A stretch of DNA of 64,000 bases from Escherichia coli. GTDB taxonomy: Bacteria > Pseudomonadota > Gammaproteobacteria > Enterobacterales > Enterobacteriaceae. This document shows, one piece after another, positions 35,201-52,386 of this stretch. The position numbers and the translations under genes were made by a program. Under the pieces are notes generated by a model. It was not told the origin of the DNA. It worked only from the letters and a program-made list of their open reading frames with translations, and searched no databases. Where the stretch lies: the NCBI RefSeq assembly GCF_044324785.1, contig NZ_CP172127.1; one strand, 5' to 3'. Position 1 is the first letter of the stretch; each line of letters opens with the position of its first letter.

Positions 35201-36132
35201 TGAAACATATTCAAATCCGCAATAGTGATATGGCCTGGCATATTGCTGCCAATATTCAGTTTCCACCAAATTTTGATGAGTCAAAACAGTATCCGGCGAT
35301 TATCAGCGTCCATCCTTTTGGCAGTTGTAAGGAGCAGACGTCTGGCAATATCTATGGCAAGGCATTGGCTGAAAAAGGCTATGTCGTTCTCGCTTATGAC
35401 GCCAGTTTCCAGGGAGAATCTGGTGGGGAGCCTCGTTGGATAGAAGATCCGACACAGCGCGTTGAGGATATTAGCCGTGTTATCGATTATGCAGTAACTC
35501 TGCCATATGTTGATGCTGAACGCATTGGCGTGCTGGGTGTGTGTGGGGGGGGTGGCTATGCCATTAATGCCGCGCTGACAGAAAAACGAATTAAAGCTGT
35601 AGTGAGTATTACGGGTGTTAATATCGGGCGTCTTTTTCGAGAAGGTTTCAGCAATTACGATCCGATTGGCGCATTGAATGCAATGGCGTCGCAACGAACC
35701 AAAGAGGCTCGTGGTGGAGAATTACAGATCAACGAATTACTTCCCGCCAGCCTGGATGCAGCAAAAGCCCATGGACTGACCGAACGCGATGTTTATGAAG
35801 CAACTGACTACTATAAAACACCACGCGGGCAACAACCGGGAGGTGCGACAAAAATGTTGTTCTCACATGCACAGAAAACGCTGGCCTGGGATGCCTTCGC
35901 ATTTACTGAAGTGTTACTGACTCAGCCGGTGATGGTAGTAGTTGGTGAAAAAGTCGGTGCCTTCGGTGCTTATCGTGATGGACTGGAAGTCTATGGCCGG
36001 GCGATGGTTTCGCAGGATCGTCAGTTAGTTTCGTTACCCGATTTCTCACATTATGAACTGTATGACAAACCGGAAGCAGTTCAGGAGGCGCTGGAAAAAG
36101 TTATTCCTTTTTTCAACACCCATCTGGGATAA
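35200..36132 (+). CDS. Second alpha/beta hydrolase, paralog of YcjY (GxCxG elbow)
   Basis: 310-aa ORF, alignable with YcjY along its length (e.g. QYPAIISVHPFGSCKEQTSG.../YDASFQGESGGEPR/RIGVLGVCGGGGYAINAA). Its start overlaps the ycjY stop (TAATG) and is preceded by GAGGA. Confidence 0.85.
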   Translation: MKHIQIRNSDMAWHIAANIQFPPNFDESKQYPAIISVHPFGSCKEQTSGNIYGKALAEKGYVVLAYDASFQGESGGEPRWIEDPTQRVEDISRVIDYAVTLPYVDAERIGVLGVCGGGGYAINAALTEKRIKAVVSITGVNIGRLFREGFSNYDPIGALNAMASQRTKEARGGELQINELLPASLDAAKAHGLTERDVYEATDYYKTPRGQQPGGATKMLFSHAQKTLAWDAFAFTEVLLTQPVMVVVGEKVGAFGAYRDGLEVYGRAMVSQDRQLVSLPDFSHYELYDKPEAVQEALEKVIPFFNTHLG

Positions 36133-36149
36133 GTTTCATGAGAAATATT

Positions 36150-36788
36150 ATGAAAAAAGTACTCATTCTTGGTGCTGGCGGTCAGATAGCCCGCCATGTG
36201 ATTAATCAACTGGCAGATAAACAAACCATTAAACAAACTTTATTTGCTCGTCAGCCAGCAAAAATACACAAACCCTATCCAACTAATAGCCAGATTATTA
36301 TGGGGGATGTACTGAATCATGCAGCACTGAAGCAGGCCATGCAGGGACAGGATGTTGTGTATGCCAACCTTACGGGGGAAGATTTAGATATTCAGGCAAA
36401 TTCAGTGATCGCTGCGATGAAAGCCTGTGATGTTAAACGTCTGATCTTTGTTCTTTCCCTCGGTATTTATGATGAAGTTCCAGGAAAATTTGGCGAATGG
36501 AATAATGCAGTTATTGGTGAACCCCTAAAACCATTCCGCAGGGCTGCGGATGCAATTGAGGCTTCTGGACTGGAATATACAATTCTTCGCCCTGCCTGGC
36601 TGACTGATGAAGATATTATTGATTATGAGCTTACCTCACGCAATGAACCATTCAAAGGTACGATCGTATCACGTAAGAGTGTCGCCGCATTAATTACAGA
36701 TATCATCGATAAACCTGAGAAACACATTGGTGAGAATATAGGCATCAATCAACCCGGGACTGATGGCGATAAACCCTTCTTCATGTAA
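36150..36788 (+). CDS. NAD(P)-binding Rossmann protein (NmrA/atypical-SDR-like); probably the full-length form of the K-12 ymjC remnant
   Basis: MKKVLILGAGGQIARHVINQL... (GxxGxxG-type dinucleotide fold). The ORF track starts at 36138, and the ATG at 36150 puts the Rossmann motif at the N-terminus. The link to ymjC is from memory of the K-12 annotation. Confidence 0.75.
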   Translation: MKKVLILGAGGQIARHVINQLADKQTIKQTLFARQPAKIHKPYPTNSQIIMGDVLNHAALKQAMQGQDVVYANLTGEDLDIQANSVIAAMKACDVKRLIFVLSLGIYDEVPGKFGEWNNAVIGEPLKPFRRAADAIEASGLEYTILRPAWLTDEDIIDYELTSRNEPFKGTIVSRKSVAALITDIIDKPEKHIGENIGINQPGTDGDKPFFM

Positions 36789-36806
36789 ATCAATTATATA
36801 GCTACC

Positions 36807-36838
36807 ATCGTACTGTACTATGTGCAGTACGATTTATT
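36807..36838 (+). terminator. Stem-loop after the NAD(P)-binding gene (putative terminator/attenuator before mpaA)
   Basis: ATCGTACTG-tactatgtg-CAGTACGAT followed by TTATT. Confidence 0.55.
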
Positions 36839-36953
36839 AAACTTATTAAGGTGAACTGATCAATCAGATGCGATTAACATGTGTAGAACCAGTAAGAATA
36901 AAATACGCCATGTATATAACATTACGACAATTCTAATATCTGCACATCAATGA

Positions 36954-36990
36954 AAATGCAAACAACTTCTGGCAAAAAAGTGATACAAGA
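36954..36990. promoter_or_regulatory. 37-bp conserved element, copy 2 (upstream of mpaA)
   Basis: AAATGCAAACAACTTCtggCAAAAAAGTGAtAcAaGA. See copy 1 at 32964-33000. It lies 89-125 nt upstream of the mpaA ATG at 37079. Confidence 0.45.
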
Positions 36991-37078
36991 TCGATGACAT
37001 AGCGTTGAAGAAAAGGATTTGATAATCCGCAAAATTTGCACAACACTGCCTGTAATACTTCCTGAACCAGAGACGATC

Positions 37079-37807
37079 ATGACCGTAACCCGCCCACGCG
37101 CCGAACGCGGCGCATTTCCGCCCGGAACAGAACATTACGGACGTTCATTATTGGGCGCGCCGTTAATCTGGTTTCCTGCCCCTGCAGCCAGCCGCGAAAG
37201 TGGTTTGATTCTGGCTGGCACTCACGGTGATGAAAACTCTTCGGTCGTCACGCTCTCCTGTGCTCTGCGGACGTTGACACCTTCTTTGCGCCGTCATCAT
37301 GTGGTGCTGTGTGTAAATCCTGACGGCTGCCAGTTGGGGTTACGGGCCAATGCTAATGGTGTGGATTTAAACAGAAACTTTCCGGCGGCGAACTGGAAGG
37401 AAGGTGAAACCGTTTATCGCTGGAACAGCGCCGCTGAAGAACGTGATGTCGTTTTACTGACAGGTGACAAACCTGGCTCCGAACCTGAAACCCAGGCGCT
37501 GTGCCAGCTTATACACCGCATTCAACCTGCCTGGGTGGTCTCATTCCACGATCCACTGGCCTGTATTGAAGATCCCAGACACAGCGAATTAGGCGAATGG
37601 CTAGCCCAGGCGTTTGAATTGCCTCTGGTAACCAGCGTCGGTTATGAAACACCTGGCTCTTTCGGTAGTTGGTGTGCGGATCTCAACCTGCATTGCATAA
37701 CCGCAGAGTTTCCGCCCATCTCCTCCGACGAAGCCAGCGAAAAATATCTCTTTGCGATGGCAAACTTGCTGCGCTGGCATCCTAAAGATGCAATTCGCCC
37801 GTTGTGA
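37079..37807 (+). CDS. mpaA: Murein tripeptide amidase MpaA (M14 gamma-D-Glu-Dap carboxypeptidase)
   Basis: The ATG at 37079 gives MTVTRPRAERGAFPPGTEHYGRSLLGAPLIWFP... and 242 aa. The HGDE zinc motif is present. Confidence 0.92.
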   Translation: MTVTRPRAERGAFPPGTEHYGRSLLGAPLIWFPAPAASRESGLILAGTHGDENSSVVTLSCALRTLTPSLRRHHVVLCVNPDGCQLGLRANANGVDLNRNFPAANWKEGETVYRWNSAAEERDVVLLTGDKPGSEPETQALCQLIHRIQPAWVVSFHDPLACIEDPRHSELGEWLAQAFELPLVTSVGYETPGSFGSWCADLNLHCITAEFPPISSDEASEKYLFAMANLLRWHPKDAIRPL

Positions 37808-38747
37808 ACTGAAGCGCCGGTTCCACATCTACCGCCAGCCAGGTCGGTCCGTCAAGATCGGCGAAACTGACCTGCGGCACCAGCGGTAAAGCGGCGCTAA
37901 TGGCACGAGAGGTACACAACATGCAGCCCAGCATCAGACTAAAACCTTGTGCACGTGCTTCAGTCGCCAGCGCCAGCGCTTCCGTCAGGCCACCCGTTTT
38001 ATCGAGCTTAATGTTAACCATCTCATAGCGCCCTTTCAGCGCCTTCAGATTGCTACGAGTATGACAACTTTCATCTGCACAAATCGGTAACGGATGAATA
38101 AAATTCTCCAGTGCCGCATCGTCCTGCGCAGGGAGCGGTTGTTCAAGCATCGCAACGCCTAAATCCGCCAATAGCTGGCAACGCGCCGCCAACCCTTCTG
38201 CACGCCAGGATTCATTTGCGTCAACGATCAGCGTCGCATCGGGCACAGCTGTGCGAATTGCCACCATCCGCTCACTGATAAGATGGTTATCCAGCTTCAC
38301 TTTCAGTAATTTCGCGCCTGCCTGCCAGAATGTTGATGCACTATTGGCCATCTGATCAGGCGTACCGATGACTACCGTCTGTGCAGTGGTGACTATCTCG
38401 GGAAGCGTTACGCCGATCAAATCAGCCAGCGATTGCTGCTGTTTTCGCGCCGCCAGATCCCACAATGCACAATCCAGCGCATTACGTGCTGCGCCGGCAG
38501 GGAGAATTTTTTGCAACTCCTCCCGTGTCAGCCCTTTCTCTAATTGCGGCACGACGCTCATAATTTGCGCCATTACCGAGGCATCACTTTCTCCATAGCG
38601 CGGATAGGGCGTGCATTCACCGGTGCCTTTAATACCCTCTTCTTCCAGTTCAACCACCACCACGCGCGCTTCACTGCGACTTCCCCGAGCAATCACAAAC
38701 GGGGTATGTAAGGGCCAGGCTTCCTCAAATACCTTAACGGTTCTCAT
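37782..38747 (-). CDS. ycjG: L-Ala-D/L-Glu epimerase YcjG (enolase superfamily)
   Basis: The ATG at 38747 gives MRTVKVFEEAWPLHTPFVIARGSRSEARVVVVELEEEG... and 321 aa. Its 3' end overlaps the mpaA 3' end by 26 nt. Confidence 0.92.
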   Translation of the reverse strand: MRTVKVFEEAWPLHTPFVIARGSRSEARVVVVELEEEGIKGTGECTPYPRYGESDASVMAQIMSVVPQLEKGLTREELQKILPAGAARNALDCALWDLAARKQQQSLADLIGVTLPEIVTTAQTVVIGTPDQMANSASTFWQAGAKLLKVKLDNHLISERMVAIRTAVPDATLIVDANESWRAEGLAARCQLLADLGVAMLEQPLPAQDDAALENFIHPLPICADESCHTRSNLKALKGRYEMVNIKLDKTGGLTEALALATEARAQGFSLMLGCMLCTSRAISAALPLVPQVSFADLDGPTWLAVDVEPALQFTTGELHL

Positions 38748-38865
38748 CTTTACTCCTTGTTGTCGCAGTGGTCTGCGGATTAAGCGCAAATAGCGTTTGC
38801 TGTGTTATTGACAGTTAGCATAAACTAGGTGTGACGTTAACTATATGTAAACAGGAAAGATAATC

Positions 38866-39372
38866 ATGTCACAAACCGTTCATTTCCAGGGCAACCCGGT
38901 TACAGTCGCCAATTCCATCCCGCAGGCGGGTAGCAAAGCGCAGACTTTTACTCTCGTGGCAAAAGATCTGTCTGACGTCACCCTCGGTCAGTTTGCGGGT
39001 AAACGCAAAGTGCTGAACATTTTCCCGAGTATTGATACCGGTGTTTGCGCCGCATCAGTACGTAAGTTTAACCAACTGGCAACAGAGATCGACAACACCG
39101 TTGTGCTGTGTATCTCTGCCGATCTGCCGTTCGCCCAGTCTCGTTTCTGCGGCGCAGAAGGTCTGAACAACGTTATCACCCTCTCCACTTTCCGTAACGC
39201 TGAGTTCCTGCAAGCTTACGGTGTGGCAATTGCTGATGGCCCACTGAAAGGTCTGGCAGCGCGTGCCGTTGTGGTTATTGATGAAAATGACAATGTGATT
39301 TTCAGCCAGCTGGTGGATGAAATCACCACCGAGCCGGATTACGAAGCAGCTCTGGCTGTACTGAAAGCATAA
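38866..39372 (+). CDS. tpx: Thiol peroxidase Tpx
   Basis: 168-aa [41 protein letters not shown]... with the peroxidatic Cys context IDTGVCA. Confidence 0.96.
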
Positions 39373-39376
39373 GTTA

Positions 39377-39409
39377 ATATGCCTGATGGTGTTGCACCAT
39401 CAGGCATAT
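39377..39409. terminator. Bidirectional terminator between the convergent tpx and tyrR
   Basis: ATATGCCTGATGGTG-ttg-CACCATCAGGCATAT, a perfect 15-bp stem. Confidence 0.8.
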
Positions 39410-39415
39410 TCGCGC

Positions 39416-40957
39416 TTACTCTTCGTTCTTCTTCTGACTCAGACCGTATTCCCGCAACTTATTGGCAATCGCGGTATGCGAAACGCCCAGGCGTTTTGCC
39501 AGTTTGCGCGTGCTGGGATAATTGCGATAAAGCTGGGTTAATACCGAGCGTTCAAAACGGCTGGTGATTTCGTCCAGCGAACCTTCCATCGCATCTTCGC
39601 CCACGGCTACCGTTGCGGCGTCATAATCCGGTAACAAAATATCCTGTGGACGCAGCTCATAACCGTCCAGTTGTGTTAGTGCGCGATAAATAGCGTTCTT
39701 TAACTGCCGCACATTTCCCGGCCACGCATAACGCGTAAGTACAGTATTCAGGTCAGCGGCCAGTTTCGGACGCGGCACGCCCTGCTCGTCGGCAAAGCGG
39801 GCGACGAACAGCTCGGTTAACGGCATGATGTCCTGCGGACAGTCACGTAGCGGCGGCAGATTGAGCGTCAACACGTTCAGACGATAATAGAGATCTTCAC
39901 GGAACACGCCTTTTTGCACCAGTTCGACAAGATTCTTCTGCGTCGCGCAAATCACCCGCACATCGACATGCACCTCATGGTCTTCGCCAACCCGACGGAA
40001 AGTGCCATCATTAAGGAAACGCAGTAATTTCGCCTGCATCCGTGGTGACATCTCACCTATTTCATCCAGCAGTACCGAACCACCGTTCGCCTGCTCAAAG
40101 AACCCTTTCTTCCCTTCCGGAGCATGACCAAACAGTTCACTCTCGACCGCATCTTCCGGGATAGAAGCACAGTTCAGCGCCAGATAGGGTTTGCCCGCGC
40201 GTGGGCTTGCCTGATGACAGGCATACGCAAAGAGATCTTTTCCGGTGCCGGTATCACCCGTAATCAGCAGCGGCGCGCTTAGCATCGCCAGTTTTTGCGC
40301 CTGTTCGACAACATGCTTCATTTTCGGGCTGACAGCGACAATTTGACTAAAGGCGCTGACGTCCTGGGCGGCGACATTTTGCAACTGACGGCCCATACGA
40401 ATCGTTGATCGCAACATCACCACCGCACCGGTCAGGACGTGTTGATCATTTTCATCCTGAAGATAAACAGGCGTAATCTCCATCAGGAAATTCTGCCCAT
40501 TAATAACGACATGCTCGTTATGCGAATCTTGCGGTTCGCTTTCCAGCCAACGTAAAAAATTAAAGCCGTTAATCAATTGTGCGGCGGTATGGTTGCGCAG
40601 GCGATCCAATTTTTGCCCAAAAAGCTGACAGCTCGCCGGGTTCGCCATATCCACTTTGCTTTTCATATCGACAGAGAGCACAGGTTCAGGCAACGCCTCC
40701 AGTAACGCGCTCAACGCCAGATGCTCACGTTCGGAAGGCATCCACGGGACAGTACGGACATCGGTAACACCTGCAATACGGCGTATTTCGGCCATCAGAC
40801 TGCTGAAACTCTCAAACTCCAGTTCAGCAAAATTGAGGTAGATTCGCCCAATGGGGTCAATCTCAATACCGCGTAAATCAATGCCTCTTAGCACGAGTAG
40901 ATCGAGTAATTCGCGGGTCAGACCGAGTCGGTCTTCACAAAAGACTTCCAGACGCAT
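39416..40957 (-). CDS. tyrR: Aromatic amino acid regulator TyrR
   Basis: The ATG at 40957 gives MRLEVFCEDRLGLTRELLDLLVLRGIDLRGIEID... and 513 aa. It has a central AAA+ domain (GDTGTGKD) and a C-terminal HTH. Confidence 0.96.
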   Translation of the reverse strand: MRLEVFCEDRLGLTRELLDLLVLRGIDLRGIEIDPIGRIYLNFAELEFESFSSLMAEIRRIAGVTDVRTVPWMPSEREHLALSALLEALPEPVLSVDMKSKVDMANPASCQLFGQKLDRLRNHTAAQLINGFNFLRWLESEPQDSHNEHVVINGQNFLMEITPVYLQDENDQHVLTGAVVMLRSTIRMGRQLQNVAAQDVSAFSQIVAVSPKMKHVVEQAQKLAMLSAPLLITGDTGTGKDLFAYACHQASPRAGKPYLALNCASIPEDAVESELFGHAPEGKKGFFEQANGGSVLLDEIGEMSPRMQAKLLRFLNDGTFRRVGEDHEVHVDVRVICATQKNLVELVQKGVFREDLYYRLNVLTLNLPPLRDCPQDIMPLTELFVARFADEQGVPRPKLAADLNTVLTRYAWPGNVRQLKNAIYRALTQLDGYELRPQDILLPDYDAATVAVGEDAMEGSLDEITSRFERSVLTQLYRNYPSTRKLAKRLGVSHTAIANKLREYGLSQKKNEE

Positions 40958-41027
40958 GGGAACCTTCACCTGAAAAAAGAACAATTAATATGATGATATG
41001 ACACTATTTGGATAGCAGGAAGGTTTC

Positions 41028-41045
41028 TGTCAACAATCATTGACA
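41028..41045. promoter_or_regulatory. TyrR box in the tyrR promoter (autoregulation)
   Basis: TGTCAA-caatca-TTGACA, a palindrome fitting the TyrR box consensus TGTAAA-N6-TTTACA, 71-88 nt upstream of the tyrR ATG. Confidence 0.75.
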
Positions 41046-41104
41046 CAAAGACGGAAAAACGGGCACTTCGGCGTAAAGATATCCGGTCAGCACCCGATAT
41101 TGCA

Positions 41105-42166
41105 TTATTTTTCGCTGGGCGTTTTGCCTTTTTGCAGCGTTTCTTTCACCTGACCGATAAGCTGACGACGGAAATCCCCAAGGCGAGGTTTGTCATCGTC
41201 AATCCACGGCAGAGGGCGGCAAAGCTCCATAGCTTTAATCCCCAGTCGTGCCGTCAGAAGTCCAGCACCAATCCCCTGAGCTGCCCGGGTAGACAAACGC
41301 GCAGCGAGATCTTGCGACATCCAGTCCATCCCCACTTCGCGCACCAGTTCGCTGGCCCCGGCGAAAGCGATATTCAGCAATACCAGCTTAAACAGGCGCA
41401 AACGGCTGTAATATCCCAGTTCAATGCCATACAGCGTGGCGATGCGATTGATCAAACGCAGATTGCGCCAGGCGATAAATGCCATATCCACCAGCGCCAG
41501 CGGGCTAACGGCGATCATCAACGTTGATTCCGCTGCCGAACGGCTGATTTCGCGCCGCGCCTGGGCATCTAAAACTGGCTGGACCAGATGAGCATACAGG
41601 CTGACCACTTCACGATCGTTCTGCGTTTCATGGATTGAGGCATACCAGCGTTGCAGTGCCGGATGCGACTGGTCGATGCCCGCCTGCTGCGCCAGTTTTT
41701 CGCAAAATGCGCGGCCTTTACCCGTGCCGTGACTGTGCAACAAATCGCGCGCTTCGTCGCGTTCATGGGCGCGCTGTCGCAAGCGCCATAAGCGCCGCCA
41801 CTCTGTTACCACAGAACCTACGCCAGCGCCGATAATCAATGCCCCAGCGGCACATCCACCCAGCGCTACCCAATCCTGAGTTTGCCAGGCGTTCATTGTC
41901 CACTGTACGCCCTGCCCGACAACGCTTGCGCCAAACAGAGCCAGCCCGCCCATCACCATTTTGCGCCACAGGCTGCGTTTCGGACGTAACGCTGCGTCCA
42001 TCACCGCTTCAACTTGCCCTTCTTCTTCCGGTGCTTCGTCGAGCGTGGCCGGAGCAAAATTTTGCGCCTGATTTTCGTCAAAGGTCTGCTGCGCCCTGAA
42101 TTTTGGATTCTGATCGACCTCCAGTGGACCGTCGAAATCAATACGTGGTTTTAACGGTTCGGTCAT
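41105..42166 (-). CDS. ycjF: Inner-membrane protein YcjF (DUF697 family)
   Basis: 353-aa [32 protein letters not shown].... Its start overlaps the ycjX stop (ATGA). Confidence 0.9.
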
Positions 42167-43560
42167 CGCAATTTATCTCCTATTAAAAATTCCAGCGCAG
42201 CATCAAGACGAATATGCGGCAGCGGTTTGTCGACATCCATCACCTGCGGACGAAACGCCTCAAACTGGAAGCCTTGCTTATCCCAGAACGCCTGACCAGG
42301 TAAACGTGCGGGAACTTCGCCAGGATAAACAGTGAGCGGTGCGCCATCGCTGAGTCGATTACCGCGCAGCGCCGGGATTTTCTCACCGTTAACATCAATA
42401 ATGCCGCTGGTGGTCGCCTGAACTGACGCCAGCCCCAGGCAGTCCATGCTGATCCCTTCGAAAGCCGCATTTTGCCAGGCATCCTGAATTAGTTGTTGCA
42501 GTAATGAAACCATATTGGCGTGCTGATCGATGGTCACATGGTCTGCTTTAGTGGCAGCAAACAATAGCTTATCGATAACCGGCGAAAACAAACGCCGGAA
42601 CAGGGTTCGCTGCCCGTAGTGGAAACTTTGCATCAGCTGCGTCAGCGCCAGACGCATATCATTAAATGCCTGTGGCCCACTGTTGAGAGGCTGCAGGCAA
42701 TCCACCAGCACAATCTGGCGGTCAAAGCGCAGAAAATGATTCTTATAGAATCCCTTCACCACTTTCTCGCAGTAATAATTAAACCGCTCGCGCAGCATTC
42801 CGGCATTGGTATGCTTATCGGCCTGCGCCAGTTTGGACTCGCCCCAGGCATCGACATCCGGCCACGGGAAGAATTGCAGCGCGGGCGCACCTGCCATATC
42901 TCCCGGCAAGACAAAGCGCCCAGGCTGAATAAAGTGCAACCCCTGCTGTTTGCAGTGGTGGAGATACTCGGTCCAGGCGGCGGCAATGTCTGCCAGCCGG
43001 TTTTCGTCGGCAGGCGCTAGCGGATCCAGCCCTTCGCACATCATTCGCCATTTCGCCGACCATTCGCCGCGCTGACCATTAAGTAAGCCCGTCATCTGGC
43101 GCGACCAGCTTAAATAGTCCTGCGCCAACATCGGCAGATCGAGCAGCCATTCGCCGGGATAATCCACAATCTCCAGATACAGCGTGGAGGTGTCCTTGAA
43201 GTGGCGTAGCAGCGAATCGTTCGATTTAAAACGTAACGCCAGGCGAATTTCACTGACGCCGCGCGTAGGCGTCGGCCAGGCGGGAGGATCGCCATATAAC
43301 TGCGCCAACCCTTCATCATAGGTGAAGCGCGGAATGCCAAAGTCACGCTGGGGAATGCGTTTTACGCCCAGCAGGCGCTCTTCACGCACCGCACTTAAAA
43401 GCGGCAAACGTGCTCCGGCATGAATATTGAGCAACTGATTAACCATCGCGGTGATAAACGCTGTTTTGCCGCTGCGGCTAAGTCCGGTTACAGCGAGGCG
43501 CAGATGTCTGTCGACACCCCGATTCACCAGCGCATTAAGTTCATTTTTAAGTCGCTTCAT
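42163..43560 (-). CDS. ycjX: P-loop NTPase YcjX (DUF463)
   Basis: 465-aa [46 protein letters not shown]... (Walker A GLSRSGKT). Confidence 0.92.
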
Positions 43561-43678
43561 TGCTGTCCTGTGCCAGAAAGCTGTAGAAAGGATTAGATAC
43601 TGGAGATAATAATGTGGGTTAATTTTGATTTATCAAATGAATAAGCGGCGTTGTTTACACCGCTCAATAAGTAATTTG

Positions 43679-43993
43679 TTAACCTTTGACCTTCGGCATT
43701 GCGATGTCTTTCAGGCCACCGGCGTTCTCAACGTGGGTATATCCCATCTCGCTAAGGATCTCTTTTGCCTGCCCTGACTGGCGTCCGGCATTGCAATACA
43801 CTTTCACGGTGTCGTTTTTATCCGGAACGGCGGTGGCAATGCGCTCTTTTACTTCCTTCAGGGGAATATTGATGGCCCCCTGAACGTGCTCTTGCTGATA
43901 CTGCTCTGGAACACGAACATCGATCCAGTGTTCAGCGGCGAAAACGGGCAGTGAAAACACCAGTGTCAGAGCAAGTAAGCCTTTTTTAAACAT
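43679..43993 (-). CDS. pspE: Periplasmic rhodanese (thiosulfate sulfurtransferase) PspE
   Basis: 104-aa ORF with a signal peptide and the rhodanese active-site loop CNAGRQS. Confidence 0.94.
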   Translation of the reverse strand: MFKKGLLALTLVFSLPVFAAEHWIDVRVPEQYQQEHVQGAINIPLKEVKERIATAVPDKNDTVKVYCNAGRQSGQAKEILSEMGYTHVENAGGLKDIAMPKVKG

Positions 43994-44067
43994 GTAAGCG
44001 TCCTTCTATGGATGAAAATTGCCATCCATAATATGCCTTAGCTTTAACAATTTTTGCGAAACTCCCC

Positions 44068-44289
44068 TCACCTTTTATAACGCTGCGCCAGTTTATTGGC
44101 AGCCCGACTTAACAGCGGTTCCAGCGCCACGGCCAGCAACATTTTCAGTGGTCGGCGAGCAACTGATTTTATCGCCCAGCCAGCTACACCCGCCGGGCCA
44201 TAGCGCAGTGCGGTAAGAAGTACCAGCTTGCCTGCTAATTTGAAACCAGGCTTCACCTTTTGCCCGGCCTGTTGCCAGCGAGTATTCAT
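44068..44289 (-). CDS. pspD: Phage shock protein D
   Basis: The ATG at 44289 gives [34 protein letters not shown]... and 73 aa. Confidence 0.9.
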
Positions 44290-44297
44290 AACTTTCC

Positions 44298-44657
44298 TCA
44301 CAGTTGACGGAAACGGCTACGTAACGTGAAAGTATCGGAAGTGACATAACGTTCCATCTCGCGTAAACGCGTTTCACTTGCCGCCAGTTCACGGTCGACT
44401 TCATCCAACAATTCGCTGCTGGAAGGTAGCTGCTCACCAAAGGCCATGTTGTCCGGCATTGGATCAAGCGCAAATGACAAAATGATGTAAGCAACCAGGG
44501 TAAACAGCGCCAGACCGAAGAAAATCGACAGCACCACCAGGATACGCACCAGTTTTACCGGTACATCAAAATAGTTGGCAATCCCGGCGCAAACGCCGCG
44601 TACCATGCCCTGCTGCGGAATACGCCATAATTTTTTATTGAGATTAATGCCCGCCAT
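44298..44657 (-). CDS. pspC: Phage shock protein C
   Basis: 119-aa [47 protein letters not shown]... (PspC domain). Confidence 0.95.
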
Positions 44658-44881
44658 TAGCGATCCCTCCAGTTCGGATGTTCTGCATCAAGAATAGATT
44701 CCAGCGCCTGAGTACGTTCGCGCATCCGTTTTGCTTCATCAGCCAGTTGCGCTAATCGCTGCTGCTCACTTTGCGACAATTCACTGCGACCAGAACGATT
44801 GCTGTAATGCAGCCATAACCAGATCGGTAAAACAAACAGCACAAAAATGGTTAACGGAATAGCCAGAAATAGCGCGCTCAT
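44657..44881 (-). CDS. pspB: Phage shock protein B
   Basis: 74-aa ORF MSALFLAIPLTIFVLFVLPIWLWLHYSNRSGRSELSQSEQQRL.... Confidence 0.95.
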   Translation of the reverse strand: MSALFLAIPLTIFVLFVLPIWLWLHYSNRSGRSELSQSEQQRLAQLADEAKRMRERTQALESILDAEHPNWRDR

Positions 44882-44934
44882 AAGGACTCCTTAGACGATG
44901 AGCGGCGGCGCGTTCGGACGCCGCCTGGATGTTA

Positions 44935-45675
<741 letters not shown>

Positions 45676-45769
45676 TTATCTTTTTGATTTATAAAGATCT
45701 GATTGAAGAATCAACAGCAGCATGCCAGGATAAGTTAGCGAATTACACTAACAAGTGGCGAATTTCATC

Positions 45770-46747
45770 ATGGCAGAATACAAAGATAATTTACTCGGCG
45801 AGGCGAACAGCTTTCTCGAAGTGCTGGAACAGGTTTCGCATCTCGCACCGCTGGACAAACCGGTGCTCATCATCGGCGAGCGCGGCACAGGTAAAGAGCT
45901 GATTGCCAGCCGTCTGCATTATCTCTCCTCCCGTTGGCAGGGGCCGTTTATTTCCCTTAACTGCGCGGCGTTAAATGAAAATCTGCTGGATTCCGAACTG
46001 TTTGGTCACGAAGCGGGCGCGTTTACCGGTGCGCAAAAACGTCATCCAGGGAGATTTGAACGTGCCGACGGCGGTACGCTATTTCTTGATGAACTCGCTA
46101 CGGCACCGATGATGGTACAGGAGAAATTATTGCGCGTGATTGAGTACGGTGAACTGGAGCGCGTTGGCGGCAGCCAGCCATTGCAGGTGAATGTGCGGTT
46201 GGTATGCGCGACGAATGCCGATCTCCCGGCGATGGTCAATGAAGGTACTTTTCGCGCTGACCTGCTCGACCGGCTGGCTTTCGATGTAGTGCAACTGCCG
46301 CCCCTGCGCGAGCGCGAAAGCGACATTATGCTGATGGCAGAACACTTTGCCATTCAGATGTGTCGGGAAATCAAGCTGCCTCTGTTCCCGGGGTTTACGG
46401 AGCGCGCCAGAGAAACATTGCTGAATTATCGCTGGCCGGGAAATATTCGTGAATTGAAAAACGTGGTGGAACGTTCAGTGTATCGCCACGGCACCAGCGA
46501 TTATCCGCTTGATGACATCATTATTGATCCCTTTAAACGGCGTCCGCCTGAAGACGCTATCGCCGTTTCAGAAACCATCTCGCTTCCAACACTGCCGCTG
46601 GATTTACGTGAGTTTCAGATGCAGCAGGAAAAAGAGTTGCTGCAACTCAGTTTGCAACAAGGGAAATATAACCAGAAGCGCGCGGCTGAATTACTGGGGT
46701 TAACCTATCATCAGTTCCGCGCGTTGTTGAAAAAGCACCAGATTTAG
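45770..46747 (+). CDS. pspF: Sigma-54 enhancer-binding activator PspF
   Basis: The ATG at 45770 gives MAEYKDNLLGEANSFLEVLEQVSHLAPLDKPVLIIGERGTGKE... and 325 aa. The GAFTGA loop is present. Confidence 0.96.
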   Translation: MAEYKDNLLGEANSFLEVLEQVSHLAPLDKPVLIIGERGTGKELIASRLHYLSSRWQGPFISLNCAALNENLLDSELFGHEAGAFTGAQKRHPGRFERADGGTLFLDELATAPMMVQEKLLRVIEYGELERVGGSQPLQVNVRLVCATNADLPAMVNEGTFRADLLDRLAFDVVQLPPLRERESDIMLMAEHFAIQMCREIKLPLFPGFTERARETLLNYRWPGNIRELKNVVERSVYRHGTSDYPLDDIIIDPFKRRPPEDAIAVSETISLPTLPLDLREFQMQQEKELLQLSLQQGKYNQKRAAELLGLTYHQFRALLKKHQI

Positions 46748-46768
46748 CGAAGTTGGGCAATACAACTT

Positions 46769-46786
46769 GCCGGATGCGGCGTGAAT
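46769..46786. repeat. Left half of a REP palindromic unit split by the IS insertion
   Basis: GCCGGATGCGGCGTGAAT. Joined with 48223-48238, one copy of GAAT removed, it rebuilds GCCGGATGCGGCGTGAATGCTTTATCCGGCATAC, a typical REP. Confidence 0.8.
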
Positions 46787-46837
46787 TGAACTGCACCCCA
46801 AATGTTGGACATAATCTGACATCTGAAGGTGCAGTTT

Positions 46838-48218
<1,381 letters not shown>

Positions 48219-48286
48219 GAATGCTTTATCCGGCATACATAATCAATACGTCGTTTGCAGGCCTGATAAGCGCAGCGCATCAGACA
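48219..48286. repeat. Right half of the split REP plus a second REP (BIME)
   Basis: GAATGCTTTATCCGGCATAC, then ...AGGCCTGATAAGCGCAGCGCATCAGACA (REP-type palindrome). Confidence 0.75.
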
Positions 48287-48313
48287 TTATTGCGTTGACC
48301 CTGCTTCTGCGTA

Positions 48314-49579
48314 TTAATCTTTCAGCGCATCCTGCAAAATTTTCATTGCCGCATCGAATTGCGCATCCGGGATGGTCAGCGGATACAGGAAACGAATCAC
48401 GTTGCCGTATGCGCCACAGGTCAGCAGAAGCAGCCCCTGCGCCAGCGCGCGTTGCTGGATTTTCTGTGCAATCGCCGCTGACGGCTCGCCCGTTTGCGGA
48501 TCGTTAAACTCTGCCGCAATCATAGACCCCAGACCGCGTACCGCCGCGATGGCCGGAACGCTTTCTTTGGCATCAATCAACGTGTTTGTCAGGCGCTGGC
48601 CCAGTTGATTCGCGCGTTCACAGAGTGATTCTTTGTCGATAATGTTGAGCACAGCGTGCGCGGCAGCCACCGCCAGCGGGTTCCCGGCGTAAGTACCACC
48701 CAACCCGCCCGGCGCGGGCGCGTCCATAATATTCGCGTTACCGACCACGCCCGAAAGCGGCATGCCGCCTGCGAGGCTTTTCGCCATCGTCATTAAGTCC
48801 GGCTTATCGGCGTAGTGATCCATGGCAAACAGTTTACCGGTACGCGCAAAGCCGCTTTGCACTTCATCGGCAATCATCACAATGCCGTGCTCGTCGCACA
48901 GGCGGCGAATGGCGGCAACCAGCTCTTTGGGTGCAACGTTGAAACCGCCCTCGCCCTGCACCGGTTCGAAAATAATCGCCGCCACCTGCTTCGCTTCAAT
49001 GTCCGATTTAAACAAGCGTTCGATGGCGTCGAGGGAGTCCTGCGTTGAAACGCCATGTAAATCTGACGGATAAGGTACGTGATATACCGAACCGGGGAAC
49101 GGGCCGAAGCCGATTTTGTACGGCGCGACCTTTCCGGTCAGCGCCATGGTCATATATGTACGACCGTGGAAGCCGCCGCTAAACGCAATCACGCCAGGGC
49201 GTCCGGTATGGGCGCGGGCGATTTTCACCGCGTTCTCCACCGCTTCCGCACCGGTAGTGAAGAACGCAGTTTTAGCCTGCCCGCTCACCGGGGCAAGGGC
49301 GTTGATTTTCTCCGCCAGGGTGACGTAGCTTTCGTACGGCACAATCTGATACGCCGTGTGGGTAAACTGTTGCAATTGCTGCTCCACCGCCGCGACCAGA
49401 TCAGGGTGGCGATGCCCGGTATTCAGCACCGCAATGCCTGCGGCGAAATCGATATATTCGTTGCCCTCTACATCCTTCAGCGTGGCGTTTTCTGCCGACT
49501 GGGCGAAGAAGTTACACATCACGCCAACCCCGCGTGGGGTAGCAGAAAGACGACGCTGATGGAATTCATTGTTGCTCAT
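48314..49579 (-). CDS. puuE: 4-Aminobutyrate aminotransferase PuuE
   Basis: 421-aa ORF MSNNEFHQRRLSATPRGVGVMCNFFAQSAENATLKDVEGNEYIDF..., a class-III PLP aminotransferase. Confidence 0.95.
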   Translation of the reverse strand: MSNNEFHQRRLSATPRGVGVMCNFFAQSAENATLKDVEGNEYIDFAAGIAVLNTGHRHPDLVAAVEQQLQQFTHTAYQIVPYESYVTLAEKINALAPVSGQAKTAFFTTGAEAVENAVKIARAHTGRPGVIAFSGGFHGRTYMTMALTGKVAPYKIGFGPFPGSVYHVPYPSDLHGVSTQDSLDAIERLFKSDIEAKQVAAIIFEPVQGEGGFNVAPKELVAAIRRLCDEHGIVMIADEVQSGFARTGKLFAMDHYADKPDLMTMAKSLAGGMPLSGVVGNANIMDAPAPGGLGGTYAGNPLAVAAAHAVLNIIDKESLCERANQLGQRLTNTLIDAKESVPAIAAVRGLGSMIAAEFNDPQTGEPSAAIAQKIQQRALAQGLLLLTCGAYGNVIRFLYPLTIPDAQFDAAMKILQDALKD

Positions 49580-49616
49580 GTTTCACACCTTTTGACTCTT
49601 CACTGTTAATCGGAAA

Positions 49617-50897
49617 TTAAACGCCCAGACGATCGCGCAGGCTGTAATAAGCCGCGCCCATCGCGGTAAATGGCACGCGCAGCGTGCGCCCGCCGGGGAA
49701 CGGGTAATGCGGCAGATTGGCGAAGGCGTCGAAGCGTTCGGCGTCACCGCGCAGCAGTTCAGCAATCAAACGCCCGGCAAGATGGGTACAGGTGACGCCG
49801 TGGCCGCTGTAACCCTGCATGTAATAGATGTTGGTATCAAGGCGACCGAACTGCGGCATGCGCGACAAGGTCAGCAGGAAGTTGCCCGTCCAGCGGTAAT
49901 CAATTTTCACGCCCTTCAGCTGCGGGAAGGTTTTCAGCAGTTTCGGCACAACAAGACGCTCAACGTCATCTGGGTCGCGCGCGCCGTAGACCACGCCGCC
50001 GCCGTACAGCAGGCGGTTATCGGCAGTCAGGCGGTAGTAATCAAGCAGATAGTTACAGTCTTCCACGCAGTAGTTTTTCGGGATCAGCGAACGGGCTAAA
50101 TCATCGGAAAGCCGCTCGGTGGTGATCACCTGCGTACCGCACGGCATGCTGCGTTTCGCTAGTTCCGGCTCTACTTTATCGCCCAGATACGCATTCCCGG
50201 CGACAACCACATACTTCGCCGTCACCTGACCATTGGCAGTCCGCACCACGGCTGGCGTGGTGTGCTGGATCTGCGTCACGGCGGAAAGCTCATACACGCG
50301 CCCGCCGTTCAGGCGGATGGCATCGGCTTCACCAATGGCGAGGTTTAGCGGGTGAATATGCCCACCGCTGTGATCCAGCAGCGCACCAGTGTAGCGATCG
50401 CTGGCGACCTCGCGGCGAATAGCGTTGGCGTCCAGCAGCTCCAGCTGTTTATTGCCGTAGCGTTCCCAGTTCTCTTTCTGCTCTTCGAGTGTGGCGAGTT
50501 GTTTATCATTCATCGCCACAAACAGACCGCCGGGGCGATAGTCGCAGTCAATCTGATAACGTTTGATACGTTCGCGGATGATCTCGCCACCCTCGAACAT
50601 CATGCTGCCGAGCATACGGGCGGTGTCCATGCCGTAGCTTTTTTCGATCACGTCGATGTCGCGGCTGTAGGAGTTCACAAGCTGCCCGCCGTTGCGTCCG
50701 CTTGCGCCGAAGCCGATGCGTGAGGCTTCAAGAACCACCACGTCAAAGCCCGCTTCTGCCAGATGCAGCGCGGAGGAAAGCCCGGTATAGCCGCCGCCGA
50801 CCACGCAAACATCGCAGGAAATCGACTCATTCAGTGTGTCGAATGGCGCGTATTTATTCGCACTGGCGGCGTAATAACTGCTGGTATGTTCGGTCAT
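49617..50897 (-). CDS. puuB: Gamma-glutamylputrescine oxidase PuuB
   Basis: 426-aa ORF with the FAD dinucleotide fold VCVVGGGYTGLSSAL. Confidence 0.95.
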   Translation of the reverse strand: MTEHTSSYYAASANKYAPFDTLNESISCDVCVVGGGYTGLSSALHLAEAGFDVVVLEASRIGFGASGRNGGQLVNSYSRDIDVIEKSYGMDTARMLGSMMFEGGEIIRERIKRYQIDCDYRPGGLFVAMNDKQLATLEEQKENWERYGNKQLELLDANAIRREVASDRYTGALLDHSGGHIHPLNLAIGEADAIRLNGGRVYELSAVTQIQHTTPAVVRTANGQVTAKYVVVAGNAYLGDKVEPELAKRSMPCGTQVITTERLSDDLARSLIPKNYCVEDCNYLLDYYRLTADNRLLYGGGVVYGARDPDDVERLVVPKLLKTFPQLKGVKIDYRWTGNFLLTLSRMPQFGRLDTNIYYMQGYSGHGVTCTHLAGRLIAELLRGDAERFDAFANLPHYPFPGGRTLRVPFTAMGAAYYSLRDRLGV

Positions 50898-50898
50898 T

Positions 50899-52386
50899 TC
50901 AGGCCTCCAGGCTTATCCAGATGGTTTTCAGTTCGGTGAATTTTTCAAGGGCATGCAGGGATTTGTCGCGACCGTTGCCGCTCTGCTTATAGCCGCCAAA
51001 CGGCACTGTCATATCGCCATCGTTGTAGTTATTGACGAAGACGGAACCGGCTTTCAGGCGGCGACTCATGCGGTGCGCGCGGGAGAGGTCGCGCGTCCAT
51101 ACTGCCGCGCCGAGGCCGTACTGGCTGTCGTTAGCAAGCTGAAGCGCCTGATCTTCTGATGTGAAACGCGTGACCACCAACACCGGGCCGAAAATCTCTT
51201 CGCGGCTTAAGGACGCATTCGGGTCTACATCCACAAAGATGGTCGGGCCGATGGCGGCAGCCAGCTCGGCGTTACGGCCATCCAGCAGCAGTTGCCCTTT
51301 GCCTTCGCCTTCACGAATAAAGCTATGCACCGAGTCGGCGTGGGCGCAGTCGATTAAGGTGCCCATGGTGGTTGCGGGATCAAGTGGATGGCCCGGCTGC
51401 CAGTTTTGCGCCTGCTGTTTTAACAGGGCTAAGAATTCATCGGCGATGCTCTCTTCCAGCAACAAACGCGTTCCGGCGATGCACACCTGGCCCTGGTTGT
51501 AGAAAATGCCTGCGGCGGTGGCGCTTGCCGCCTGTTGCAAATTCGGGCAGTCGGCGAAAACGATGTTGGCGCTTTTGCCGCCCGCCTCCAGCCAGACGCG
51601 TTTCATGTTGCTGTCGCCCGCGTCCTTCAGCAGCTGTTTCCCGGTGCGGGTTGAGCCAGTAAAGGCAATGGCATCGATATCGTTATGGCGCGAAAGCGCC
51701 TGCCCGGCTTCATGACCAAAACCCGTCACCACGTTCAACACACCATCCGGCAGCCCCGCGTCTTTCGCCAGCCCCGCGAGACGAATCGCACTGAGCGGTG
51801 ATTTTTCAGACGGTTTTAGAATCACGCTGTTTCCCGCCGCCAGCGCCGGGCCGAGTTTCCAGCAAGTCAGCAGCAGCGGGAAGTTCCACGGCACGATGGC
51901 GGCAATCACGCCGACCGGTTCACGCACGATCATCGCCAGCTCATGGCTACTGGTGGTCGCCACTTCGCCATACACTTTGTCGATCGCTTCGGCGTACCAG
52001 CGAATGGCGCGCGCCGCGCCGGGAATATCATCACGCAGGCTGTGACGAATCGGTTTACCGGTGTCGAGCGTTTCCAGCAGTGCCAGCTCTTCGGCGTTGG
52101 CTTCCATTAAATCGGCGAGTTTATTCAGTACCGCTTTACGTTTAGCCGGAGAAGAGAGTGACCAGTCGCCGCGTTCAAATACGCCGCGTGCTGCGCTCAC
52201 CGCACGGTCGATATCGACGCTCTTGCCGCGGGCAATTTTCGCCAGCGGTGCCTGGGTGACCGGATCAACGGTTTCAAAAGTTTCATTTTCCGCCGCAGCA
52301 GTATATTCACCGTTAATAAATAAGCGGGTTTCAATGGCGAGACTTAACGCTTTATCCTGCCAGTAAGCCAGATGATGAAAATTCAT
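50899..52386 (-). CDS. puuC: Gamma-glutamyl-gamma-aminobutyraldehyde dehydrogenase PuuC
   Basis: The ATG at 52386 gives MNFHHLAYWQDKALSLAIETRLFINGEYTAAAENETFETV... and 495 aa. Aldehyde dehydrogenase motifs are present (EAGGKS, GQVCIAG). A few substitutions relative to remembered K-12 PuuC. Confidence 0.94.
   Translation of the reverse strand: MNFHHLAYWQDKALSLAIETRLFINGEYTAAAENETFETVDPVTQAPLAKIARGKSVDIDRAVSAARGVFERGDWSLSSPAKRKAVLNKLADLMEANAEELALLETLDTGKPIRHSLRDDIPGAARAIRWYAEAIDKVYGEVATTSSHELAMIVREPVGVIAAIVPWNFPLLLTCWKLGPALAAGNSVILKPSEKSPLSAIRLAGLAKDAGLPDGVLNVVTGFGHEAGQALSRHNDIDAIAFTGSTRTGKQLLKDAGDSNMKRVWLEAGGKSANIVFADCPNLQQAASATAAGIFYNQGQVCIAGTRLLLEESIADEFLALLKQQAQNWQPGHPLDPATTMGTLIDCAHADSVHSFIREGEGKGQLLLDGRNAELAAAIGPTIFVDVDPNASLSREEIFGPVLVVTRFTSEDQALQLANDSQYGLGAAVWTRDLSRAHRMSRRLKAGSVFVNNYNDGDMTVPFGGYKQSGNGRDKSLHALEKFTELKTIWISLEA

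Follow-up and report, generated by a model that had tools for sequence, protein, structure and literature searches.

An island-free pspE-ycjX junction in Escherichia coli that probably represents the ancestral Escherichia allele of the psp/ycjXF neighbourhood

An association of ycjXF with psp operons was reportedly noted by Darwin in 2005. In Yersinia enterocolitica, pspF is divergent from the psp genes, which are followed by ycjX and ycjF on the same strand, and the unit has been called the pspABCD-ycjXF operon (Darwin & Miller 2001, reviewed in PMC3467454). Huvet et al. 2011 surveyed 81 psp operon structures, of which 32 included ycjX, at gaps of varying size (PMC3041696), and the psp-ycjX association was confirmed by Popp et al. 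2022 (PMC9239133). In E. coli K-12, ycjXF-tyrR is reported to form a sigma-32 unit of its own, according to RegulonDB and Nonaka 2006 as these are quoted in PMC3041696, and YcjW-dependent effects on pspE expression have been described (PMC6599011). The presence of ycjM has been suggested to mark enteric E. coli (Deng 2014, as cited in PMC13118800), and the public collections contain hundreds of annotated E. coli genomes without the island. That psp and ycjXF adjoin is real but already known, and what we describe here is a sugar-utilisation island whose presence or absence varies by lineage.

The annotated record of MC4100, a K-12 derivative, places 12 genes (about 14 kb) between pspE and ycjX, namely ycjM, N, O, P, Q, R, S, T, pgmB (ycjU), a frameshifted ycjV, ompG, and a divergent ycjW. 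This is the order that the first-pass annotation of our sequence had given for K-12. The island, which comprises the kojibiose/glucoside-utilisation genes together with ompG, from ycjM to ycjW, is a derived allele carried by most E. coli, including K-12. The sequence analysed here, which we call the window, is a stretch of 64,000 nucleotides of E. coli DNA (contig NZ_CP172127.1 of assembly GCF_044324785.1). Its psp/ycjXF neighbourhood contains the following features.

39416..40957, minus strand: tyrR, the 3' gene of the ycjXF-tyrR unit described in K-12 (NCBIfam PRK10820, 1056 bits; start according to the RefSeq annotation of L001)
41105..42166, minus strand: ycjF, membrane protein, DUF697/TIGR01620 (NCBIfam TIGR01620, E = 9e-130; Pfam PF05128)
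42163..43560, minus strand: ycjX, YcjX-family P-loop GTPase, DUF463, 465 aa (Pfam PF04317, E = 2e-181)
43561..43678, minus strand: pspE-ycjX spacer, 118 bp, island-free allele (at least 99% identity in 372 of 5426 complete E. coli genomes)
43679..43993, minus strand: pspE, thiosulfate sulfurtransferase (rhodanese), 104 aa (NCBIfam PRK10287, E = 4e-64)
44068..44289, minus strand: pspD (NCBIfam PRK10497, E = 3e-40; start according to the RefSeq annotation of L001)
44298..44657, minus strand: pspC (NCBIfam PRK10697, E = 2e-64)
44657..44881, minus strand: pspB (NCBIfam PRK09458, E = 9e-36)
44935..45603, minus strand: pspA (NCBIfam PRK10698, E = 9e-134)
45655..45670, minus strand: sigma-54 promoter of pspA by consensus match, TGGCACGCAAATTGTA (1 mismatch to TGGCAC-N5-TTGCW; 51 nt 5' of the pspA ATG)
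45770..46747, plus strand: pspF, sigma-54 activator of the psp operon, divergent from pspA (NCBIfam PRK11608, E = 8e-205; start codon set by the RefSeq annotation of L001 mapped onto the window)

The phage-shock-protein locus is complete, with pspF and pspABCDE forming six genes in canonical order and orientation, and the matches of PspF, A, B, C, D, E, YcjF, TyrR, and YcjG to NCBIfam models lie above the curated cut-offs (for YcjF, 433 bits to TIGR01620 against a cut-off of 160). YcjX is a full-length family match, with 604 bits to PF04317 over residues 20-464, and it matches the PDB entries 6NZ4/5/6 ("YcjX stress protein") with E = 1e-124 (6NZ5_A, E = 5e-124). The order of the locus is pspF, divergent, then pspABCDE, the spacer, ycjXF, and tyrR. 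As the first-pass annotation had stated, pspABCDE and ycjXF lie on one strand, the minus strand, which also holds tyrR, and the gap between pspE and ycjX is exactly 118 bp (43561..43678), as the ORF list and the sequence both show. The stop codon of ycjX and the start codon of ycjF overlap by 4 nt in the ORF list.

The sequence TGGCACGCAAATTGTA is the sole match to TGGCAC-N5-TTGCW with no more than 2 mismatches on the coding strand from pspF to ycjF. Across the whole window, 42 matches at this threshold were found against 47 expected by chance; since the pattern is no commoner than chance, it is the position of TGGCACGCAAATTGTA that carries the weight. This pspA promoter is common to K-12 and the window. 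An IS3-family element of 1.43 kb also occupies the window at 46787-48218, between pspF and puuE, with orfA at 46829-47359 (HTH_28/HTH_Tnp_1 domains) and orfB at 47464-48186 (rve integrase core). The element is absent in K-12 and in strain 19KM1831, and it is present at the same site in strain WCHEC4533, where it is annotated as IS1397.

The genes flanking the junction in K-12 match those of the window at 97-98% nucleotide identity, and the difference is concentrated at the junction itself, where K-12 has the 12 extra genes (about 14 kb) that the window lacks. No island gene lies between pspE and ycjX in the window, where the 118 bp leave no room for a gene, and blastn against K-12 indicates that the whole 14-kb segment is missing. 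Aligning the junctions, as had been proposed, showed that the homology of the window to K-12, EcN, and WCHEC4533 ends at the pspE stop codon and at a point 13 nt before the ycjX ATG. Because ycjW is absent, the YcjW effect on pspE cannot exist in the window.

The sequence between these two breaks points to a different history from that of its flanks. Over its last 85 nt, up to the ycjX ATG, the spacer shares 91% identity with L003 (a locus described below) and 88% with Escherichia albertii, but only 59% with the K-12 ycjX leader. In contrast, over the first 300 nt of ycjX the identity is 96.7% to K-12, compared with 93% to L003 and 90% to E. albertii. The spacer differs from those of L003 and E. 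albertii by 9-12%, as much as the neighbouring coding DNA does (7-10%), while the spacer of Escherichia fergusonii is strongly diverged (56% identity to the window). Because the spacer is orthologous to those of L003 and E. albertii and not to that of K-12, although the flanks are K-12-like, we consider it likely that the window carries the ancestral, island-free Escherichia allele of the psp/ycjXF neighbourhood, in which the spacer can be read as a compact two-unit junction. An ancestral arrangement had already been suggested for this strain, and the suggestion gains support from the contiguity of psp and ycjXF in E. albertii, E. fergusonii, L003, and Klebsiella oxytoca and from the orthology of the spacer, end to end, with those of L003 and E. 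albertii. The island allele, by comparison, has its own, much older-diverged pspE 3' region, with a terminator, and its own ycjX leader.

To describe the spacer, its elements are listed below in the direction of transcription. The promoter-like elements are consensus matches only, which are not evidence of function.

43679-43681, minus strand: pspE stop codon TAA
43642..43666, minus strand: stem-loop after pspE, UGAGCGGUGU-AAACA-ACGCCGCUUA, a terminator-like site in the scan
43632..43641, minus strand: interrupted U-tract, UUCAUUUGAU, with 5 U in its first 8 nt, overlapping the -35-like hexamer
43609..43636, minus strand: promoter-like element TTGATA-16 nt-CATTAT, 9 of 12 consensus matches
43636-43631, minus strand: -35-like hexamer TTGATA
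43636-43625, minus strand: near-palindrome containing the -35-like hexamer, TTGATAAATCAA
43612..43618, minus strand: sigma-32-like element CCCACAT
43614-43609, minus strand: -10-like hexamer CATTAT
43566..43569, minus strand: Shine-Dalgarno sequence of ycjX, AGGA, 5 nt before the ATG, read from the sequence
43560, minus strand: ycjX start codon ATG

The stem-loop consists of 10 pairs (5 GC) with a folding energy of -13.9 kcal/mol (z = -4.95), and the scan of 43300-46000 gave no other terminator-like site on the coding strand. Its position is conserved in 8 sequences, and in the consensus structure 4 of the 10 pairs are changed on both sides. It had been described as weak in the first-pass annotation, a description that we correct, given that the stem is strong and shows compensatory changes and that the weak part is the U-tract, UUCAUUUG. 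The stem is GC-rich, as in a rho-independent terminator, but the tail UUCAUUUG lacks an uninterrupted run of at least 6 U. In the first 8 nt after the stem, the window has 5 U compared with 8 of 8 in K-12, where the hairpin is followed by a T9 stretch. No Rfam family or known small RNA was found in 43300-44100 at E <= 1.

The composition of the tail follows the identity of the next gene. In every species in which pspE abuts ycjX, the U-tract is interrupted or missing, with 1 to 5 U in the first 8 nt, whereas the island-bearing E. coli have the tails U9 (K-12) and UUUACUUUUU (EcN and WCHEC4533). A terminator score gave -13 for the window, -2 to -52 for the other contiguous alleles, +58 for K-12, and +16 for EcN and WCHEC4533, of which only the ranking is trusted, as the score is a d'Aubenton-Carafa-type heuristic whose formula is approximate and whose calibration rests on older energy parameters. 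From its sequence, the stem-loop may be read as a predicted weak or leaky intrinsic terminator or as a 3'-end stabiliser.

The promoter-like element lies directly behind the hairpin. The block TTGATAAATCAAAAT(T/C)AACCCACATTATTA is kept in the alignment of the window, L003, and E. albertii, and partly in Citrobacter, and the sequence ACAGGA is kept in most aligned spacers; it includes the AGGA listed above as the ycjX Shine-Dalgarno sequence, an element that the first-pass annotation had already placed in this spacer. Sigma-32 promoters have a CTTGAAA-like -35 and a CCCCATNT-like -10 element separated by 12-14 nt. The sigma-32-like arrangement in the window is TTGATA-N11/12-(A)CCCACAT, with a degenerate -10 element, while that of K-12 is TTGATA-N13/14-CCCCACAT; the spacing in the window is 2-3 nt shorter, which makes the transfer of the K-12 sigma-32 annotation uncertain. 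The pattern search for sigma-54 sites at no more than 2 mismatches found none in the spacer. A sigma-54 reading of TGGCACAGGACAGCA, before the ATG, was rejected, since its GG and GC elements are spaced one base more tightly than such a site allows and it coincides with the start codon.

The near-palindrome that contains the -35-like hexamer has a counterpart, TTGATAATCAA, in K-12 (L002, ~5975-5985) and in island-bearing Enterobacter. It is conserved across ycjX leaders that are otherwise diverged, and its spacing does not fit FNR. This candidate could be a binding site for a regulator.

Taken as a whole, this anatomy suggests how the junction might be transcribed. The conserved GC-rich hairpin would end or stabilise the pspE transcripts, and because a proper U-tract is absent, termination would be only partial. 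A ycjX promoter, with TTGATA as -35, CATTAT as -10, and the sigma-32-like CCCACAT, would overlap the tail of the hairpin, and a leader of about 40 nt, a length estimated from the position of the -10 hexamer, would precede the ycjX ATG and carry the AGGA. ycjXF would then be driven mainly by its own promoter, with minor read-through of PspF/sigma-54 transcripts and of those from the pspE promoter. The comparisons above establish the gene order, the ancestry and frequency of the allele, and the structure and conservation of the hairpin; terminator efficiency, promoter use, and read-through are all predicted here by consensus scans and the heuristic score. The spacer combines a hairpin poor in U with a promoter-like element and contains no sigma-54 site, which makes transcription of ycjXF plausible both by read-through and independently of psp, and the allele of the window would lie between the extremes of K-12 (a separate unit) and Y. 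enterocolitica (one operon).

It is possible, though we doubt it, that the pspE hairpin terminates efficiently, that ycjXF-tyrR is transcribed only from its own sigma-32/sigma-70 promoter, and that the adjacency has no regulatory meaning. The strong and conserved stem, the only site of its kind between 43300 and 46000, and the promoter-like element directly downstream are consistent with such insulation, as are the separate sigma-32 unit reported for K-12 and the repeated association and dissociation of ycjXF and psp described by Huvet et al. (both PMC3041696). What argues against it is the interrupted U-tract (5 U of 8), which leaves the score below threshold, unlike in the island-bearing alleles. 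In addition, the beginning of ycjX shares 4 nt with the ORF before it in loci labelled Erwinia, Pantoea, Rahnella, Serratia, Ewingella, Photorhabdus, Morganella, and others; gaps 5' of ycjX were measured with stop-to-stop ORFs, which are noisy, and were used only for this recurrent overlap. The overlaps and the operon of Y. enterocolitica indicate that co-transcription is the older state. The reading that we favour for the window thus remains that of an own promoter with some read-through from psp.

With regard to ancestry, an alternative that we judge unlikely is that an ancestral-type allele arrived by homologous recombination from another, island-free E. coli lineage and replaced the island. 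WCHEC4533 carries the island, and its flanks are 98.6-98.8% identical to those of the window, as close as those of the island-free 19KM1831; island-plus and island-minus genomes are equally far from the window in the flanks, ~1.2% (L090 compared with L001). Together with the IS1397 site that WCHEC4533 shares with the window, this means that the allele may have moved by recombination within the species instead of by strict vertical descent, and the bimodal ycjM alleles (at least 99% or 90-95% identity) point to a locus that is a mosaic shaped by recombination. However, the mismatch density near the junction is not raised, and the divergence of the spacer equals that of its coding neighbours, which argues against a recent import from another species. 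A mobile origin of the spacer was also considered and rejected, since the only "plasmid" matches are 4.9-Mb records, which are evidently chromosomes. The data fit both vertical retention and recombination within E. coli.

Gene order in relatives was compared in 80 YcjX loci sampled from species-representative genomes and annotated by tblastn; E. albertii, E. fergusonii, and Salmonella were outside this sample, and both Escherichia species were obtained through PspE homologues. In 51 of the 80 loci, psp genes lie directly 5' of ycjX on the same strand. The enterobacterial members of this set include Enterobacter, Raoultella, Buttiauxella, Erwinia, Pantoea, Yersinia, Serratia, Rahnella, Xenorhabdus, Photorhabdus, Providencia, and Morganella, and outside the Enterobacterales the contiguity extends to Photobacterium, Aliivibrio, Aeromonadaceae, and Shewanella, thus reaching the Vibrionaceae. 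pspABCDE is followed directly by ycjXF in E. albertii (120-bp gap), E. fergusonii (124 bp), and K. oxytoca (89 bp), and the gap in L003 is 118 bp, the same as in the window. The gene order of strain 042, 19KM1831, E. albertii, and E. fergusonii is identical to that of the window, with spacers of 118-124 bp, and the IS1397-like insertion between pspF and puuE is what the window has beyond the layout of these island-free E. coli, E. albertii, and E. fergusonii.

Several of these loci have peculiarities of their own. L003 is a GTDB species representative labelled E. coli SCPM-O-B-8794; its identity to the window is ~90% over 10 kb, and it lacks the puu cluster beside pspF. It is likely another Escherichia species or a cryptic clade filed as E. 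coli. In K. oxytoca (L089, 9111-10392), a phage-type integrase and an excisionase follow ycjF where Escherichia has tyrR. None of the PspE homologues belongs to a named Salmonella; the locus P0085, considered as a guess for Salmonella, was set aside because its assembly is poor and full of frameshifts, and ABC-transporter genes, not ycjX, come after pspE in it.

In Citrobacter (L085-L087), pspE, ycjX, ycjF, and tyrR are adjacent, and the hairpin after pspE has no U-tract, similar to the window. These genomes do have a ycjT-pgmB-ycjV-ompG-ycjW island, but it is located 5' of pspE and not between pspE and ycjX (L085 1-6460; L086 1-6460; L087 143-2781). In the Enterobacter and Scandinavium loci that have the island (L004, L006-L008), ycjW abuts ycjX, with no pspE between them. 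The positions of the island in Citrobacter, E. coli, and Enterobacter/Scandinavium imply at least two different island junctions in the pspD-ycjX interval.

Of the relatives, Yersinia offers the model of a single operon. The contiguity stated for this genus in the first-pass annotation is seen in the Y. proxima locus L018, where psp is followed by ycjX-ycjF, and the window has the same placement, with ycjX-ycjF directly 3' of the last psp gene on the same strand. In Yersinia, however, pspE is missing (PMC9239133; no PspE match in L018), whereas the window has pspE and the conserved hairpin between pspD and ycjX. That ycjXF is mainly the distal part of a PspF/sigma-54-dependent pspABCDE-ycjXF transcript, as in Yersinia, seems improbable to us. 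The shared strand, the short gap, and the U-poor hairpin would agree with it, as would the Yersinia precedent (PMC3467454), the 51 contiguous loci of 80, and the increase of ycjX and ycjF together with the psp genes in phiX174-infected E. coli (PMC8125068), although heat-shock genes rise in these cells too. The gap of 118 bp, the conserved hairpin of -13.9 kcal/mol, and the conserved promoter-like block nevertheless speak for at least partial autonomy of ycjXF, and the lack of a sigma-54 site in the spacer also stands against this view.

A more speculative proposal, which we put forward only tentatively, is that the ancestral U-poor hairpin lets PspF/sigma-54 transcription enter ycjXF and that the island, when most E. 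coli acquired it, brought a strong terminator and a new ycjX leader that cut ycjXF off from psp. The ancestral arrangement occurs in the strain of the window, in ~7% of E. coli, and in E. albertii, E. fergusonii, Klebsiella, and Citrobacter. If the proposal were true, the envelope-stress response would truly include the YcjX GTPase and YcjF as its distal members, and K-12 would be the exception among models, which would account for the fact that a link between Psp and YcjXF has never been observed in it.

The frequency of the two alleles was determined among 5426 complete E. coli genomes, in response to the earlier proposal to survey the ycjM-ompG cluster. ycjM is present in 5031 of them and the ycjW-ycjX junction in 5015, while the 372 genomes with the island-free spacer make this state a minority (~7%) yet common allele. 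Strain 042, of phylogroup D, is one of the 372 carriers. The window is identical to no complete genome; strain N3 comes closest, at 99.4%, and island-free strains typically match at 98.4%. About 23 genomes have neither ycjM nor a window-type spacer, such as T28R, which has an internal deletion and keeps only the last 88 nt. Although such deletions do occur, and although the island is found in the close background of WCHEC4533 (flanks 98.6-98.8%, with the same IS1397 between pspF and puuE), a secondary loss, in which the lineage of the window had a K-12-type island and deleted it so that its contiguity is derived, is largely refuted by spacer orthology and hardly credible, because the deletion of a K-12-type island would leave K-12-type flanks and could not give the observed homology breaks or a spacer that is 88-91% identical to E. 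albertii and L003 and ~59% to the K-12 leader, that has the same length as in L003 (118 bp), and that is common to all 372 genomes at 99% identity or more.

The significance of these results is small on its own, and their modest value is practical. What they add to the known adjacency is the spacer orthology as proof that the island-free allele is ancestral, the contrast between U-poor hairpins where ycjX is next and T-rich terminators where the island is next, and the replacement of the ycjX leader in the island allele. Island-free strains similar to 042 offer a natural E. coli background for testing the membership of YcjX and YcjF in the Psp response. Since the two types of strain carry different alleles of the pspE 3' region and of the ycjX leader, the K-12 ycjX promoter and the link between YcjW and pspE should not be assumed in island-free strains.

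The neighbourhood varies in other respects as well. In EcN (L091, 21069-21500), the puu cluster, from puuE to puuP, is missing between pspF and ymjA, where a gene fragment remains; this is another presence/absence polymorphism beside the psp locus. A 16-kb query (window 36000-52000) is covered to at least 80% at one place in 434 genomes, compared with the 372 that have the 118-bp spacer, and the other ~62 may carry shortened islands or other rearrangements of the junction. The identity of ycjM to K-12 (query L002:18128-19807) is bimodal, with 3069 genomes at 99% or more, 379 at 95-99%, and 1580 at 90-95%, and the divergence of ycjM within E. coli is far above that of the flanking core genes. 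This distribution suggests either two old island haplotypes or more than one acquisition.
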